A stretch of DNA of 6,337 nucleotides from a virus (Duplodnaviria > Heunggongvirae > Uroviricota > Caudoviricetes), in IMG/VR virus record IMGVR_UViG_2711768060_000007, positions 1 through 6,337 of that record, one strand, 5' to 3'. This document shows, piece after piece, positions 1 through 6,268 of this stretch; positions within the stretch are counted from its first letter, which is position 1; each line of letters begins with the position of its first letter. The position numbers were made by a program, and so were the translations under genes. The notes beneath the pieces were generated by a model. The model had not been told where the DNA came from, did no database searches, and saw only the letters and a program-made list of their open reading frames with translations.

Positions 1-230
1 GTGGCCGCGACGGCAACCACCGAAATCTTATTGCCGACCCGGCCCTCCTGTTTCGCCGTGAAATCCAGCGCCGTTCCCAGCAGCCACGAGCCAGCAGTAC
101 CGGAAGCGCACACACCGCCGGAGGCGCCCGGCGCAGTCCCCACCAGGCCAATCACTGCCGTGGAGATGGTCTGCACGGCAACCGTGCCTGTTGTCAGTTC
201 AATGGTTTCAACACCATGTAATCCGGACAT
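1..230 (-). CDS. contractile tail sheath protein (P2 FI-like), N-terminal part only; gene runs off the window start
   Basis: ATG at 230..228 preceded by GGGAGA (241..236 on minus) with 5-nt spacing. The first ~76 codons translate to MSGLHGVETIELTTGTVAVQTISTAVIGLVGTA..., resembling the conserved N-terminus of P2-type sheath proteins as I recall it. It sits directly downstream of the fiber assembly gene, as FI follows G in P2. Similarity fades after ~35 residues, so confidence is moderate. The + strand ORF 1..276 over the same bases translates to Pro/Thr/Ala-rich low-complexity sequence and is taken as a shadow. Confidence 0.5.
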   Translation of the reverse strand, partial: MSGLHGVETIELTTGTVAVQTISTAVIGLVGTAPGASGGVCASGTAGSWLLGTALDFTAKQEGRVGNKISVVAVAA

Positions 231-243
231 ACATTTCTCCCAT

Positions 244-265
244 AAAAAAACCGCCCTCAGGCGGT
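244..265 (-). terminator. rho-independent terminator downstream of the tail fiber assembly gene
   Basis: Plus strand 250..265 is a-ccgcc-ctca-ggcgg-t: a 5-6 bp GC-rich stem with a 4-nt loop. On the minus strand it is followed by a run of 7 T (complement of A 244..250). It lies 20-40 nt after the stop of the 285..827 gene. Confidence 0.55.
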
Positions 266-284
266 CAGATGATTAACTTCTTTT

Positions 285-827
285 TCAGGTATTTTGTGGC
301 TGCTCAGGCCAGCTAATATTGTTGTATGTGGTCTTATCCGTAATAGCGCTGAAATCCATCGCCTGCAGCGATTTCGCGTAAATGCGGTACGCTTTCAGCT
401 TCTCCCTGTCTTCGTCACTGATTAATCCCGGCAGCAGGTCTTTTTCCCACTCGCTGGTCATGATGCTGACCTGTTTTAACAGGGCATCGCGCTCATCTTC
501 CGCTTTAAGTTTGTAGTCGAAGACAAATTTATCGTCGCGGTAAAACCAGTAACCAGGCACGGTAATACGGCGATTAGCGGTAATATCAGGAACTTCAATA
601 ACACTGGCGTTACGGGGTTCAATGCCTGTCACATCCTTACCGACCCACACCACGCGCCCGTCTCCGGTGTAAACCATTTTTATGGTGTCACTGGCAAAAT
701 TCTTCTGTTCTTCATACCAGTTTTTTCCGTCTTCCGAAAAAAGCCAGGTGACACCATATTGTTTTGTCAGCTGATATTGTTCCGCGGTTTTCGGATTACC
801 CGCAGTAATATTTTTTAAATGTAACAT
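285..827 (-). CDS. G: tail fiber assembly chaperone (P2 gpG / Tfa family)
   Basis: 180-aa ORF. N-terminus MLHLKNITAGNPKTAEQYQLTKQYGVTWLFSEDGKNWYEEQKNF closely resembles P2 gpG as recalled. C-terminus ...KLKAYRIYAKSLQAMDFS...ISWPEQP matches the Tfa C-terminal pattern. Start ATG (827..825) is 2 nt after the upstream fiber stop TAA (832..830), indicating translational coupling. Confidence 0.85.
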   Translation of the reverse strand: MLHLKNITAGNPKTAEQYQLTKQYGVTWLFSEDGKNWYEEQKNFASDTIKMVYTGDGRVVWVGKDVTGIEPRNASVIEVPDITANRRITVPGYWFYRDDKFVFDYKLKAEDERDALLKQVSIMTSEWEKDLLPGLISDEDREKLKAYRIYAKSLQAMDFSAITDKTTYNNISWPEQPQNT

Positions 828-829
828 TG

Positions 830-1303
830 TTAAACACTCGCCACGTTATACCAGGTGCCATTAATCAGTTTCTGAAGCGGACGGTAATACACGCCGCCGA
901 TGTTATCTGCCGAATTACTTCCGGTTTCCTGCACATTAATACCGGATAACCCGTAGCCTGCAGGTGAGCGAAATGTCCAGGAAATTTCATTTCCCCCAGG
1001 GTTATAGAACATTTCGGAACCATAACGCACATCCTGCACGCCGCCATTTCGCTGCTGATAACGGGCATCGAAATTTCCATAGTTTGATGGGGTCATCTGT
1101 CCGTTTACAGCGAATGTGATACTGCCATCGGTATTTCTCTGGCTGTAAAAATGCCAGCCGGAATCATCACCAAGCTCTGCAACTACAGGTCGGGATGAAT
1201 TACCCCATAAATTAAACGTTGCGTTTTTCGTGGAGTTGTTGGCGCTGGATAACGTGAATTTTTTAGCATTTCCGGCCTGAATATTTTTTAACGCTATCGC
1301 CAC
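830..1303 (-). CDS. H: tail fiber protein, C-terminal (tip) portion; 3' piece of a frame-shifted P2 H-like fiber gene
   Basis: 157-aa ORF from GTG 1303: (M/V)AIALKNIQAGNAKKFTLSSANNSTKNATFNLWGNSSRPVVAELGDDSGWHFYSQRNTDGSITFAVNGQ...INGTWYNVASV, very like the P2 H C-terminus as recalled. The same frame is open upstream to a TAA at 1483..1481 and there encodes ...GYIGVQNALGGNSIAFGDNDTGIKQNGDGILDVYANGQHVFRFQNG, which is also fiber-like. The real coding extent in this frame is therefore about 830..1480. Confidence 0.75.
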   Translation of the reverse strand: MAIALKNIQAGNAKKFTLSSANNSTKNATFNLWGNSSRPVVAELGDDSGWHFYSQRNTDGSITFAVNGQMTPSNYGNFDARYQQRNGGVQDVRYGSEMFYNPGGNEISWTFRSPAGYGLSGINVQETGSNSADNIGGVYYRPLQKLINGTWYNVASV

Positions 1304-1371
1304 ACCATTCTGGAAACGAAATACATGCTGTCCATTCGCATAAACATCCAGAATGCCGTCGCCGTTTTGTT

Positions 1372-2259
1372 TTATACCTGTATCGTTATCCCCGAAAGCA
1401 ATTGAGTTTCCGCCCAGCGCGTTCTGAACGCCGATATACCCAGCGCACCATTGACCTGAGAACCGCCGCCAACAGACACTTTATGCGACATGGATATTTC
1501 ACCCGTCCGCAGATTAATAGTGAACGGTCGAAGTGGACCAATATCGCCATTCTCGCCCTGACCTTCACTGGTAGGGATAAGATGCAGGCACTCTTCCGAA
1601 CGACGAAAAATAAGGCCAAAAGCGTCGTTGAAAATCCTCAGCGCATTAACGCCACGGATTTTCAGTTCCCCGGTCATGGTGTCACCATCACGCTGAACGG
1701 CATTTTTTGCCTTGTCCACCGTGGGTTTTAATCCGAGGTTTTCAACAGCCTCATCCTTGTCTTCCACATCCGAAAGATTCTTTTTTCGTTGCAGATAGCG
1801 TCTGTCTCCGATTTCCTGAGTAATAATGGCCCTGTTCGGGTCAATTTCCACCACCACACTTTCCGCATGCGTCAGTGTCAGCACCAGTGTGATAATCACT
1901 TCTTTCACAATGGAATCCGTCTGGGCAGGCAGATACGTATCCGGATAGCGCCCGTAAGCAATCAGCGTACCTGAACGACTGCGCAGCCCCAGTTCACGCA
2001 GGATTTTTCCCGGATATTTTTTGCAGTCAATCACCACCTGACCACTGATCATCCCTTCGTCACTGCCGGCTGTGGAAAAGGGTTCACTGCCAAACGGCCC
2101 ATACAACTGCGTGACCGCCGCCATATCATCCGGTGTATCCGGCAGGTTTCCGTCACCACCGTCACCCAGTACCACATCTGACAGAACAACCGTTTTACCG
2201 GCCTGCCAGGCGGCTTCAATCTCCCTGGCCCCGGCCAGCGTCAGGACAAGTCCGGACAT
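1372..2259 (-). CDS. H: tail fiber protein, N-terminal and shaft portion; 5' piece of a frame-shifted P2 H-like fiber gene
   Basis: 295-aa ORF. ATG 2259..2257 is preceded by GAGGAGG (2270..2264) with 4-nt spacing. N-terminus MSGLVLTLAGAREIEAAWQAGKTVVLSDVVLGDGGDGNLPDTPDD...ILRELGLRSRSGTLIAYGRY and internal ...KPTVDKAKNAVQRDGDTMTGEL match conserved P2 H-type motifs. The last ~20 codons before the stop at 1374..1372 (..ISAFRTRWAETQLLSGITIQV) look like out-of-frame readthrough. Confidence 0.8.
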   Translation of the reverse strand: MSGLVLTLAGAREIEAAWQAGKTVVLSDVVLGDGGDGNLPDTPDDMAAVTQLYGPFGSEPFSTAGSDEGMISGQVVIDCKKYPGKILRELGLRSRSGTLIAYGRYPDTYLPAQTDSIVKEVIITLVLTLTHAESVVVEIDPNRAIITQEIGDRRYLQRKKNLSDVEDKDEAVENLGLKPTVDKAKNAVQRDGDTMTGELKIRGVNALRIFNDAFGLIFRRSEECLHLIPTSEGQGENGDIGPLRPFTINLRTGEISMSHKVSVGGGSQVNGALGISAFRTRWAETQLLSGITIQV

Positions 2260-2456
2260 ACAGCCTCCTCTGTGGTCAGACCAAATACACGGACAAGGCG
2301 GTCACGGAGTTCCGGGCTGACCTCTTTTTTCTCTTCATCAATGTCTCCGTCGTTAATCACCAGAACCCCGGCCCGGGCCAGTGTCTGCAGGTACGCAACG
2401 AAACAACTGTCCGTCTGGCAGAAATGAATTAACGTCTTCATCTGAACGAACGTCAT
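2241..2456 (-). CDS. hypothetical small acidic protein (71 aa), function unknown
   Basis: ATG 2456..2454 lies 2 nt after the upstream TAA (2461..2459) and has GGAG 6 nt upstream. Its stop TGA (2243..2241) overlaps the first codons of the fiber gene. It exactly fills the I-H gap with coupling at both ends. Translation: MTFVQMKTLIHFCQTDSCFVAYLQTLARAGVLVINDGDIDEEKKEVSPELRDRLVRVFGLTTEEAVCPDLS. No family recognised. The ORF track gives a longer 88-aa version from ATG 2507, which overlaps the upstream gene by 49 nt. Confidence 0.4.
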   Translation of the reverse strand: MTFVQMKTLIHFCQTDSCFVAYLQTLARAGVLVINDGDIDEEKKEVSPELRDRLVRVFGLTTEEAVCPDLS

Positions 2457-2458
2457 GG

Positions 2459-5400
2459 TTAACTCCATCCTGTCGGCAATTCGCCGTAATCGTCCAGTGC
2501 TGTGCACTGAAACAGTGTTCTTGCATGGATGACCTGCTCAGGCAGTCTGCTGATAAATGACAGCCCGTGCCCGCGCAGCTTCACACACCCTTCAAACGCG
2601 CTTCTTACATCCGTCACCGTACTGAAAAAATCCGGGCTGAAAATCGCCTCCACAATACTTTCCAGTGATACACATCTGTCAAAGAGGTGCCCGGCATCCG
2701 ATACCGCTGTACCGGAAAGCAAGCCTGTTTCCGCCTGTTTCAGTGATGTGCACTGGCTGAACGCATAGCTGAAATCCGTGGCCAGACTGTTACCGGAAAA
2801 CAGATCCGCGGGGACCACCTCCAGACGGGAACATTTCATAAACACCTTACTGAACGTGGTGACGTGCAGGTTGTGACGGAACAGCCCTGCAGGCACTGAG
2901 ACCAGTCCGGTTTCAGAAAACGCACTCAGGAAGACGGATATCAGCGGACAGGCAGCAAACAGCGACTCCGGTACGGTCTGCAGCGCTGTACATCCCGCAA
3001 AAGCACTCTCCACCGTAACCAGCAGCGGATTGTGCTCAAACACACCGGGCGGAACAGTGGTCAGTGATGTGCAGGAATAAAAAATACCCCTGGCGGTCGT
3101 CAGTTTCGTCATGGCTCCAAACAGGTCGTCCGGGAGGCTTTCCAGCGAAATGCAGCCACTGAACGTCATCCAGAGATAGGTGACTCCGGGAACATTGCCA
3201 AACAGCATCAGCGGCAGGGTGCGCAGAGCGCGGCAGTTCCTGAATACCTCCAGTAGCTCTTTAATTTCTGAGCACCCGTCAAATAAGCGGGCTCCAACAG
3301 AGCGCAGCGAGACACAGTCGACGAACAGCCCCCGGACCTGTGTCAGGGCGGTGCAGTCACTGAATACACGTTCCCCCACGCGCAGCAGACCGGAACACGC
3401 CATAAAGGCGTTATACACGTTGATGAGATTTTCAGCCCCTCTGAACGCACCGTCAGGGATCTCCGTCAGTGACTCGCAGTTACGAAATGCAGAATGAAGG
3501 GTCGTCAGCTCACGGCAGTCACCAAAATCCGGCATTACGCTCAGCACCCGGCAGTTATAAAATGCCGAAGCAAAGTCTTTTGCACCGGTACAGCCTGCCA
3601 GAAGCCCCTCTCCGGTGCTTTGCAGTGATTTATCACCGTAAAATGCGAAAGAAAAATCTCCTGCCCCCGTGCAGTTACGGAACAGATGGTCTCCGGTGGT
3701 ACGCAGCGCCGTACAGTTTCTGAACACACTGTTGAAGGTGGTGACGCTGGTCAGATTTTCAAACAGGCCATCCGGGAGGGACTGTAATGCACTGCAGTCC
3801 ATAAATGCCTCCCGGAATGTCGTTGAGCGGATGCACGGGCTGAACATCCCGGAAGGTACCGCCGTCAGTGACGTACATTTGCTGAATGTCCGGGAAAAAT
3901 CCCCGCCAGGCACATGGCTGAAGATACCTCCGGGAATGGTCGCCAGTCGACTGCAGGAATAAAACGCCTCCCTGAACTGCGTGGCACTGACACAGCCAGT
4001 AAACAGCCCCTCGCCGATACTGGTCAGTGAGGTACAGTTATAAAAAAGCCTGCCAAAATCCTTGGCCGATGTGCAGCCTGAAAACAGGTCTCGCCCCACC
4101 GTCTGCAACGCGCTGCAGCCATAAAATGCACTGTCAAACGTACCCGCGTTCTCCAGACCACGGAATAAGCCGTCAGGGACAGCTGACAGCGAGGTACAAT
4201 TACTGAAGACGCCTCTGAAACTCCGGGCCTCAGTGAAGCCGGCGAAGAGTGTGGCGGGAACCGTCTCCAGTGCGGTACAACCAGTAAACAGGCTGTAACA
4301 GTCCCGTACCCCCTGCAGTCCCTTAAAGGCGTCGTCATGTACAGTGACCAGGTTTCGCTGTCCACTGACAAACGACGCTAATGAACTCACTGTTCCCGTA
4401 TAACGAACCAGCTCCGTGACCGGATTCAGGGCGGCGGAGAACGCGTCTGCTGTGCGTTGCAGCGTGGCCTGCCCGGGGTTTTTTACGGTAATAAGATATT
4501 CGGTACCCTCCGTCAGCGGGCGTGTGGCGTATACACCATACAGCACACCGGAATTTGTACTCCTGAGCGCATACTCTCTGTTATCACCGTCACCGTAATT
4601 AATCAGGAAATCAGCGTTTTCAGGCCGGACAAAAAATAAGGGCCGGTCAGCAGACTCCACCCGGGAGACAAACGCCAGCACCGGAACCACCTTCACGCTG
4701 ACCGTGCAACTGATACCGTTGAGGGTGGTCACGGTAACCTGGCATTCTCCGTACGTCTGTCCCGTCAGTAGAAAACCGCCTTCCGCCAGGGTGGCTGTGA
4801 CACAACCAGGCTCTGCAACCCGGACAGTGAAACTTTTGTCTTCCGCCTCCGGTGGCAGGATAGTGACGCCGATAAAACGACATTCCCCGGGCTCCAGCCA
4901 GACTTCCGTTTCCGTCAGGGTGATACCGGTCGGAAAAATGCGGCTCCTTATATATTCGGTGGCACAGGCGTAACCGGCTGCATAAACCGGGCCTGCACTG
5001 CGACCATAAACGTGAACCGAAAACCATGAGCGCAGATTTTTCGCACGAAGCACCGCATGCTTCAGATCCTGATGATCATTCATCAGCACCGGTAAATCCT
5101 TCTGCTCCACGTTCAGACGAAAGGTATACGGCTCCCCGGGTGGGGTCTGCTCATACCACTCAACAATCTGCGACCGGAAGGGACTGTCAGCCAGCGATGC
5201 CATCAGCGCCGCTTTAGTCCCTCTGTGGCGGTGGATGTAAGCAGCACGTTTTATCGCAGACCTTTTTTCCGTCTCCGTCCAGTGTTCATTCCAGGTATCC
5301 ACCGCCATTTCCCAGGCCAGCCATGGCAGCAATTCAGCAGGGCATAAATCGGGATTTTTCACATAGCGGATCAGGCAGACCGCTATGTCTGACAGCATAT

Positions 5401-5476
5401 CTCCGGCGACACAGTCCACCACCCGCTCTGCCCGGCGGGCACTGACCGGCAGTATGCTCCTGATATCGTCATTCAT
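2459..5476 (-). CDS. baseplate wedge protein I (P2 gpI family) with large C-terminal extension: Ig-like domain plus ~22 BspA-type leucine-rich repeats
   Basis: Uninterrupted 1005-codon ORF. ATG 5476..5474 has GGAG 7 nt upstream and overlaps the end of the J reading frame (ATGAATGA). Residues 1-~180 (4937..5476) carry the gpI signature ...NPDLCPAELLPWLAWEMAVDTWNEHWTETEKRSAIKRAAYIHRHRGTKAAL.... Residues ~183-265 (4682..4930) look like a Big_2-type Ig fold (..FTVRVAEPGCVTATLAEGGFLLTGQTYGECQVTVTTLNGISCTVSVKV). Residues ~382-990 (2507..4333) are tandem 26-27-aa units, e.g. FSNCTSLSAVPDGLFRGLENAGTFDSA, FYGCSALQTVGRDLFSGCTSAKDFGRL, FMDCSALQSLPDGLFENLTSVTTFNSV. Confidence 0.9.
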   Translation of the reverse strand: MNDDIRSILPVSARRAERVVDCVAGDMLSDIAVCLIRYVKNPDLCPAELLPWLAWEMAVDTWNEHWTETEKRSAIKRAAYIHRHRGTKAALMASLADSPFRSQIVEWYEQTPPGEPYTFRLNVEQKDLPVLMNDHQDLKHAVLRAKNLRSWFSVHVYGRSAGPVYAAGYACATEYIRSRIFPTGITLTETEVWLEPGECRFIGVTILPPEAEDKSFTVRVAEPGCVTATLAEGGFLLTGQTYGECQVTVTTLNGISCTVSVKVVPVLAFVSRVESADRPLFFVRPENADFLINYGDGDNREYALRSTNSGVLYGVYATRPLTEGTEYLITVKNPGQATLQRTADAFSAALNPVTELVRYTGTVSSLASFVSGQRNLVTVHDDAFKGLQGVRDCYSLFTGCTALETVPATLFAGFTEARSFRGVFSNCTSLSAVPDGLFRGLENAGTFDSAFYGCSALQTVGRDLFSGCTSAKDFGRLFYNCTSLTSIGEGLFTGCVSATQFREAFYSCSRLATIPGGIFSHVPGGDFSRTFSKCTSLTAVPSGMFSPCIRSTTFREAFMDCSALQSLPDGLFENLTSVTTFNSVFRNCTALRTTGDHLFRNCTGAGDFSFAFYGDKSLQSTGEGLLAGCTGAKDFASAFYNCRVLSVMPDFGDCRELTTLHSAFRNCESLTEIPDGAFRGAENLINVYNAFMACSGLLRVGERVFSDCTALTQVRGLFVDCVSLRSVGARLFDGCSEIKELLEVFRNCRALRTLPLMLFGNVPGVTYLWMTFSGCISLESLPDDLFGAMTKLTTARGIFYSCTSLTTVPPGVFEHNPLLVTVESAFAGCTALQTVPESLFAACPLISVFLSAFSETGLVSVPAGLFRHNLHVTTFSKVFMKCSRLEVVPADLFSGNSLATDFSYAFSQCTSLKQAETGLLSGTAVSDAGHLFDRCVSLESIVEAIFSPDFFSTVTDVRSAFEGCVKLRGHGLSFISRLPEQVIHARTLFQCTALDDYGELPTGWS
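2507..4333 (-). repeat. in-frame tandem coding repeats (~78-81 nt period, ~22 units) encoding BspA-type leucine-rich repeats
   Basis: Protein-level periodicity F-x-x-C-x-x-L-x-x-[VI]-[PG]-x-x-L-F-(x)8-F-x-x-A, repeated about 22 times. Related motifs recur on the plus strand at roughly 80-nt multiples: gaacagccc near 2879 and 3323, aaacaggcc at 3761, aaacagcccc at 4001, aaacaggtc at 4082 (4081 begins aaaacaggtc), ggaataagcc at 4162. Units are diverged, not identical. Confidence 0.7.
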
Positions 5477-5575
5477 CGGTTGTCTCCACCTTATTCAGCG
5501 TTACCCTACGGCACCACGGTGCCTGCCCCATCGCAGGAACGATATCACTGGCTGGTGAGGTCAGATTCACCGTAA

Positions 5576-6268
5576 TCACCCCGGTCTGGTGCAGAGCACC
5601 ATAATATCCGCCACCACATCGTAGGGAATAATTTCTGCCGTCCGGACACTGACAAAATCCGTCAGGGGACGGGTTTCATCATCACAGACTGATGCTGCCA
5701 CCTTATCCAGCAGGGGTTGTGATGCAGTGCCATTTCCGGACCGGGATAACACATAAAGAAAAACCCGGCCTTCCTGCGAATGTGTTTCCGGCCCGTAAGC
5801 CTTCACATCCAGCACATCAGGATCAGCACTTTGTGCAAAATAGTGATACGCATTTTTCGCGCCGGCGGTGCTGAGCCGTGCCCATGACAACTGGATACGT
5901 TCGCGAAAAGCGTCATCATCTTCATACACCGCCGGCGTGGGCGGAATGGTGCTGTCGTCTGCCGGGGTAATAACCAGCCGCTGAACCTGATAATTCGCGC
6001 CAACCTGATCCAGGTCGTTCCCACCGGCACTGGCAAGCAGTACAGCACGGACAGCATCATTGATCTGCTGGCGCATCAGCGCCACCCGATAAGCCAGCGC
6101 CTCTGCCCATTTATATGCGGGATCAGATTCCACCAGAGCCGAAAACAACGTATCCAGCTCCTGATACTTCGCCACTATCTGAGTGACCAGCACAGCGGTG
6201 TCCGGCACATCCACTACATCCGGTACAGGTATCGCGGACAAATCAATAATGGCCTGAGACGTTGCCAA
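5576..6268 (-). CDS. J: baseplate assembly protein J (P2 gpJ family); ORF ends early, apparent frameshift near the 3' end
   Basis: 230-aa ORF from TTG 6268..6266, with GAGGAG 7 nt upstream and an in-frame TAA two codons before. Translation (M)ATSQAIIDLSAIPVPDVV...NDAVRAVLLASAGGNDLDQVGANYQVQRLVITPADDSTIPPTPAV... matches P2 gpJ motifs as recalled (IIDL..LP.PDVV; RAV.LA.AAGNDLD; L.ITPADDSTIPPTPAV). Stop TGA is at 5578..5576. The adjacent frame over 5469..5579 encodes VITVNLTSPASDIVPAMGQAPWCRRVTLNKVETTDE and ends overlapping the gene I start, which looks like the true J C-terminus. Confidence 0.8.
   Translation of the reverse strand: MATSQAIIDLSAIPVPDVVDVPDTAVLVTQIVAKYQELDTLFSALVESDPAYKWAEALAYRVALMRQQINDAVRAVLLASAGGNDLDQVGANYQVQRLVITPADDSTIPPTPAVYEDDDAFRERIQLSWARLSTAGAKNAYHYFAQSADPDVLDVKAYGPETHSQEGRVFLYVLSRSGNGTASQPLLDKVAASVCDDETRPLTDFVSVRTAEIIPYDVVADIMVLCTRPG

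Follow-up and report, generated by a model that had tools for sequence, protein, structure and literature searches.

P2 gpJ, Mu gp47 and T4 gp6 exemplify a type of baseplate wedge protein whose closest solved homologue, for the J gene described here, is PA0618 of the R2 pyocin (Tri1; 6U5B/6U5K). In simple baseplates of this class, the wedge has the composition (PA0618)2-PA0619, i.e. (J-like)2-(I-like)1, and adjacent wedges are linked by dimers of the C-terminal domains of their J-like subunits, which fasten the six wedges into a ring (PMC10457771). In the pyocin, this inter-wedge dimer breaks on contraction (PMC10457771). The J gene analysed here resembles the genes for such proteins in its Baseplate_J match, its place in the gene order and the overlapping junction of J with gene I, but differs in that its product ends at residue 222 plus eight aberrant residues, without the inter-wedge dimerisation domain.

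The stretch of DNA analysed (the window) is the entire 6,337-bp contig CXYG01000049.1 of draft assembly GCA_001269325.1. All named relatives are from E. coli. Its minus strand carries a P2-type tail module, arranged as in annotated relatives, where the order is V-W-J-I-H-tail fibre assembly-sheath-tube; J lies within the W-J-I-H part of the module, with an overlap of J stop and I start. The features are as follows:

6337 (window end), minus strand: W, 3' end only
5576..6268, minus strand: J, 230-aa ORF with a TTG start at 6268
2459..5476, minus strand: gene I, 1005 aa, identified by Pfam and PHROGs, intact, downstream of the broken J
2241..2456, minus strand: conserved 71-aa ORF between I and H, overlapping the start of H by 19 nt
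1372..2259 and 830..1303, minus strand: tail-fibre gene H, split into ORFs of 295 aa and 157 aa
1435..1438, minus strand: TA to TATA duplication in H, private to the contig (GGGTATCGG to GGGTATATCGG)
285..827, minus strand: tail-fibre assembly gene
1 (window start), minus strand: sheath gene, start only

The contig ends inside the sheath gene (window 1) and inside W (window 6337), and these two genes are common, at high identity, to related prophages of which one E. coli genome may carry up to 3-6 copies. Outside the window, two of the relatives (L006, positions 1..9000, and L001, positions 1..5700) show the prophage family to be a hybrid. Its head side is lambda-like, with a GpA terminase, a lambda-type portal, a ClpP/S49 protease, a head decoration protein, a major capsid protein (in some loci) and FI, FII-like head-tail joining genes, and to these head genes a P2-like contractile tail module is joined.

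The J product of the window matches the Baseplate_J profile (Pfam PF04865) with an E-value of 1.8e-19 and 70.5 bits against a cut-off of 21.1, and Baseplate_J_N and Baseplate_J_M are also on record for it, in agreement with an earlier note on this DNA, which had recognised a Baseplate J-like gene. The intact J of a relative matches phrog_6, 'baseplate wedge subunit' (3e-64), and can be aligned from end to end with PA0618 of the R2 pyocin (6U5B, E 3e-58), its residues 211-296 matching the C-terminal domain of PA0618 that was solved separately (5CES). A complete member of the family is a protein of about 300 aa that includes this 5CES-type domain; the J of the window has residues 1-222 only.

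Read directly, the 230-aa ORF (6268..5576) closes as ...VLCTRPG-TGA, with the stop at 5578..5576 directly after a run of four G's (5582..5579), and 99 nt (5575..5477) separate this stop from the ATG of gene I (5476..5474). The adjacent frame from 5579 to 5469 reads VITVNLTSPASDIVPAMGQAPWCRRVTLNKVETTDE and ends in a TGA at 5471..5469, within ATGAATGA. The earlier note had described the ORF, the gap, the G run and the adjacent frame correctly, and it had taken the adjacent-frame peptide for the genuine C-terminus of J, ending at a coupled J/I junction in ATGAATGA. This is borne out by the relatives: the peptide of 36 residues matches the J C-terminus of the closest ones (L006, L007 and L009) at 100% identity and that of the other loci checked at about 92-97%. 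The conserved remnant begins seven codons further upstream than had been proposed, with GALHQTG preceding VITV..., and comprises codons 262-304. The broken gene thus has the following parts:

5603..6268, minus strand: intact 5' part of J, codons 1-222; residues 1-222 identical to the 304-aa J of L006
5602..5603, minus strand: deletion junction, ...GGCGGATATT / ATGGTGCTCTG..., with 115 nt absent
5602..5579, minus strand: out-of-frame codons, translated MVLCTRPG, then the premature TGA at 5578..5576
5579..5582, minus strand: G run of four, the wild-type length; GGG-G(TG) is Gly-Val in the original J frame
5469..5601, minus strand: stranded 3' remnant of J, codons 262-304 at 5600..5472, original stop at 5471..5469
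5484..5490, minus strand: Shine-Dalgarno-like GGTGGAG, located 7 nt before the ATG of gene I, by direct reading

(The last two bases of codon 261, at 5602..5601, form the 5' edge of the stranded remnant.)

Where was the frame lost? Close relatives were found in public assemblies by exact-protein look-up with the gene I protein and the 71-aa protein of the window. In a nucleotide alignment with three intact J genes of E. coli prophages, the J of the window shows a single gap of 115 nt, with CCGGGGTGATT identical, and in the protein alignment residues 223-260 are absent from it. The missing segment corresponds to J nt 667-781, made up of codons 223-260 and the first base of codon 261. The gap falls between window positions 5603 and 5602 and thus lies 20 nt upstream of the run of four G's. 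Since 115 (3 x 38 + 1) is not a multiple of three, the J frame is left after Ile222, and eight wrong codons and a stop follow (ATG GTG CTC TGC ACC AGA CCG GGG TGA), so that the TGA at 5578..5576 is reached. Seven relatives that are 99.7-99.95% identical to the window, and three more at about 98.5%, agree on the position: the BLAST alignment breaks at the same point, 115 nt are skipped and a 304-aa J is called in each. Compared with the whole 6,337-bp contig, the relative L006 (Logan SRR35867296_6575, locus positions 9025-15474) differs by 4 substitutions, the 115-nt gap and the 2-bp insertion in H. (Another relative, L030, appeared to lack J, but has a scaffold gap of 3,265 N's at that place.)

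The intact form is also the one found in complete genomes. When the J region was compared by megablast with 5,426 complete E. coli genomes, 69 matches covered it in full; each of those listed is split into two pieces and extends over about 115 nt more than the query. When a 140-nt query across the junction was used, the match in complete E. coli genomes spanned 255 nt; 64 complete-genome records cover at least 80% of this query, and all 55 of those listed consist of two pieces with an extra 115 nt. In RefSeq, the J gene of the matching records is 915 nt long, encodes a 304-aa 'baseplate assembly protein' and overlaps gene I by 8 nt. The full-length members listed for the 507-member 90% cluster of the J protein are likewise 304 aa long. 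The deletion allele was sought among GTDB species representatives, JGI metagenomes and the 5,426 complete E. coli genomes, and was not found in them. The exact 230-aa protein is on record for this one contig only, which speaks against homologues of gpJ that naturally end in ..CTRPG, a possibility that had been raised before. Whether artefact or not, the 115-nt gap almost certainly accounts for the loss of frame in the sequence as it stands.

One match to the junction query, in E. coli STEC313 (H89; L037, NZ_CP041433.1 4662875-4664930), spans 256 nt versus the usual 255. As a carrier of a junction variant it was rejected, since its J is separately degraded, with small indels away from the G run. 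In this J remnant, which is annotated as several small ORFs, unrelated sequence replaces the 5' part, and there are several 1-nt indels (J nt 429, 458 and 704) and none at the G run.

The stop had previously been accounted for in another way, by contraction of a G5 run to G4 at 5579..5582, through slippage or sequencing error, in a J of about 266 aa that a fifth G would restore. The arithmetic of this proposal holds, in that one inserted G joins both frames, and the J of the window is like genes with homopolymer (contingency-type) frameshifts or homopolymer errors in stopping directly after a short G run. It differs from them in that the run is invariant at four and the frame changes 20 nt upstream of it. 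In 25 of 25 related loci, CAGACCGGGGTGATTACGGT lies within an open frame of about 304 codons that closes at ATGAATGA (two of the 25 open J frames are shortened only by the end of the locus), so that the run has exactly the same length in intact and broken alleles. At this place, the sequence of the intact genes is CACCAGACCGGGGTGATTACGGTG, with four G's as in the window, and its translation is H-Q-T-G-V-I-T-V. A pattern scan of IMG/VR gave 19 matches (contigs) for the 20-mer with four G's and none for the one with five; the CCGGGGG form that the earlier note had suggested looking for in related prophages thus has no representative in either set. Among the fetched loci, the window is alone in having a frame of 68 codons at the G run. 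The ATGAATGA overlap of J and I, on the other hand, is kept in all 26 loci including the window, where only the frame of the stranded remnant leads to it. Adding a G would give a protein of 266 aa from which residues 223-260, and with them about half of the C-terminal domain, are absent and in which seven residues (261-267) are misread, whereas the wild type has 304 aa. Tracts prone to slippage are far longer than four bases, and the frame change is fully explained by the 115-nt gap; contraction of the run is next to impossible. What stands of the earlier account is the broken J and its true C-terminus, while the cause and the repair that it proposed give way to the gap 20 nt upstream. The locus is a cautionary case, in which a stop beside a short homopolymer mimicked slippage and comparison with relatives alone placed the lesion elsewhere.

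Could the frame be restored during translation instead? If the Gly-tRNA in the P site slipped back by one base (-1) on G_GGG while UGA occupied the A site, some of a 266-aa product, J', would be made. A stop codon in the A site favours ribosomal slippage, and CC-GGG-G-TGA permits perfect re-pairing on GGG one base back. However, in all relatives the G run and the bases around it belong to ancestral coding sequence that is read in frame, as one continuous ORF through the site, so there would have been no selection for recoding; moreover, J' would be without 38 residues, and have seven more misread, of a C-terminal domain of about 86 residues. If such recoding did take place, the internally deleted J' would end at the coupled J/I junction, partly preserving the coupling to gene I, and some baseplate function would perhaps be kept in an apparently dead J. 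We consider it highly improbable.

The close relatives also allow the lesions to be dated in relative terms. All four substitutions between the window and L006 (two in J, two in I) are synonymous, and the stranded 3' remnant is 100% identical to L006 at the nucleotide level. The gene I protein of the window is identical to that of L006 and is also encoded in L007, and an intact J adjoins it in both. When the changes are polarised with the seven close relatives, those private to the window amount to one synonymous substitution (3626) and two indels, namely the J deletion and the TA to TATA duplication in H. With differences that are synonymous only and a remnant that is undecayed, the event appears to be very recent. 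H is intact in L006 (475 aa), and the frameshift in the window divides it into the ORFs of 295 aa and 157 aa. This break, too, had been placed at a homopolymer, but the actual lesion is the dinucleotide duplication at 1438..1435. Neither indel is a homopolymer error, and the artefacts typical of sequencing chemistry explain neither of them.

By what route might 115 nt have been lost? No microhomology was found at the deletion junction, so there is no simple replication-slippage mechanism. The longest direct repeat nearby is TGGATGGTG (9 bp), between the copies of which recombination would remove 96 bp, in frame, and not 115. Folding of the intact region as single-stranded DNA is no more stable than that of shuffled sequence (z = -0.38). 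In appearance, the event is either an illegitimate deletion independent of microhomology or an assembly mis-join.

The best reading, and in our judgement the probable one, is a genuine loss of 115 bp from J as part of recent prophage decay. An E. coli prophage whose tail module is of the P2 type would have lost these base pairs from its J between window positions 5603 and 5602; ribosomes would leave the J frame after Ile222 and stop at a TGA that happens to lie beside an ordinary, wild-type GGGG, and the last 43 codons of J would persist, with the ATGAATGA overlap, as an untranslated remnant. The frameshift in H would fit the same picture of very recent decay, with purifying selection acting until shortly before. 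The window J shares with other decaying prophage genes of E. coli an intact orthologue in near-identical relatives, a lesion whose length is not a multiple of three, an undecayed 3' remnant and a second lesion nearby in H. It differs from them in nothing unusual, except that the event is very young and so far confined to a single assembly.

The alternative is a 115-nt gap produced by a wrong join or gap closure in the draft assembly, with J and H both intact in vivo. The allele is a singleton, and the window is the whole of a short-read-sized draft contig, which ends in genes (W and the sheath gene) that are common to multi-copy prophages; such shared regions are error-prone in assembly. Assembly-breaking repeats probably bound the contig, and this bears on the trust to be placed in its two private indels. 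Both of these break genes, and they stand against one private SNP, an unusually high share of indels for natural divergence, while the products of 230, 295 and 157 aa are each on record for one contig only. The lack of junction microhomology has been counted here on the side of a mis-join, but it also cuts the other way, since a De Bruijn assembler can skip sequence only by way of a shared k-mer, of which there is none here; the 9-bp repeat is in the wrong register. The contig contains no N's, the TA to TATA duplication and the clean loss of 115 bp both resemble ordinary mutations, and prophage decay is common, as in the independently degraded J of STEC313. An assembly error is thus possible but the less likely of the two, and we infer that the gap is biological. 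In either case, whether J is a common pseudogene formed by deletion or was misassembled, there is no new biology; the family is well known, and so is the decay of prophage genes.

What would a genuine deletion mean for the phage? The truncated J keeps the N-terminal and middle domains and about 12 residues of the C-terminal one. As the dimerisation domain is nearly all lost, closure of the ring, and hence tail assembly, should fail. To judge by the pyocin homologue, the J of the window is most likely a null allele, and the prophage would be unable to build tails. Termination 99 nt upstream also removes the translational coupling of gene I to J; gene I may be translated without it, by way of its own Shine-Dalgarno-like GGTGGAG. 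For annotation, J is best entered as a pseudogene by 115-bp internal deletion in a prophage that is probably tail-defective, and should not be 'corrected' by the addition of a G.

Gene I encodes 1005 aa in the window and 196 aa in most related E. coli prophages. A Tail_P2_I domain (residues 1-~150), an Ig-like stretch (~173-265) and a long region of BspA-type leucine-rich repeats make up its product, which falls in a 37-member 90% cluster in E. coli, matches phrog_9915 (unknown function) and shares 43% identity along its whole length with the 'tail protein I' of Klebsiella phage ST16-OXA48phi5.4. It may provide the baseplate wedge with an additional module for receptor binding. Two otherwise near-identical relatives, L007 and L029, have a shorter H (419 aa) that is without 18 + 150 nt of window 1103..1303 and has a diverged C-terminal part, so that the tip of the tail fibre is polymorphic within the lineage of this prophage.

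A cassette of about 3 kb (window about 2035..5029) comprises the extension of gene I, the 71-aa ORF and the 5' end of H. By megablast, the cassette had no match in the 5,426 complete E. coli genomes, where only its flanks were found (~50% coverage), but it is present in dozens of draft and Logan assemblies, and the region for host recognition thus appears to have been exchanged as a module. The 71-aa ORF gave no Pfam match and corresponds to phrog_11426 (unknown function; E 9e-39). Public assemblies contain the exact 71-aa protein in at least 30 blocks, and the long I gene accompanies it in all ten of those shown.
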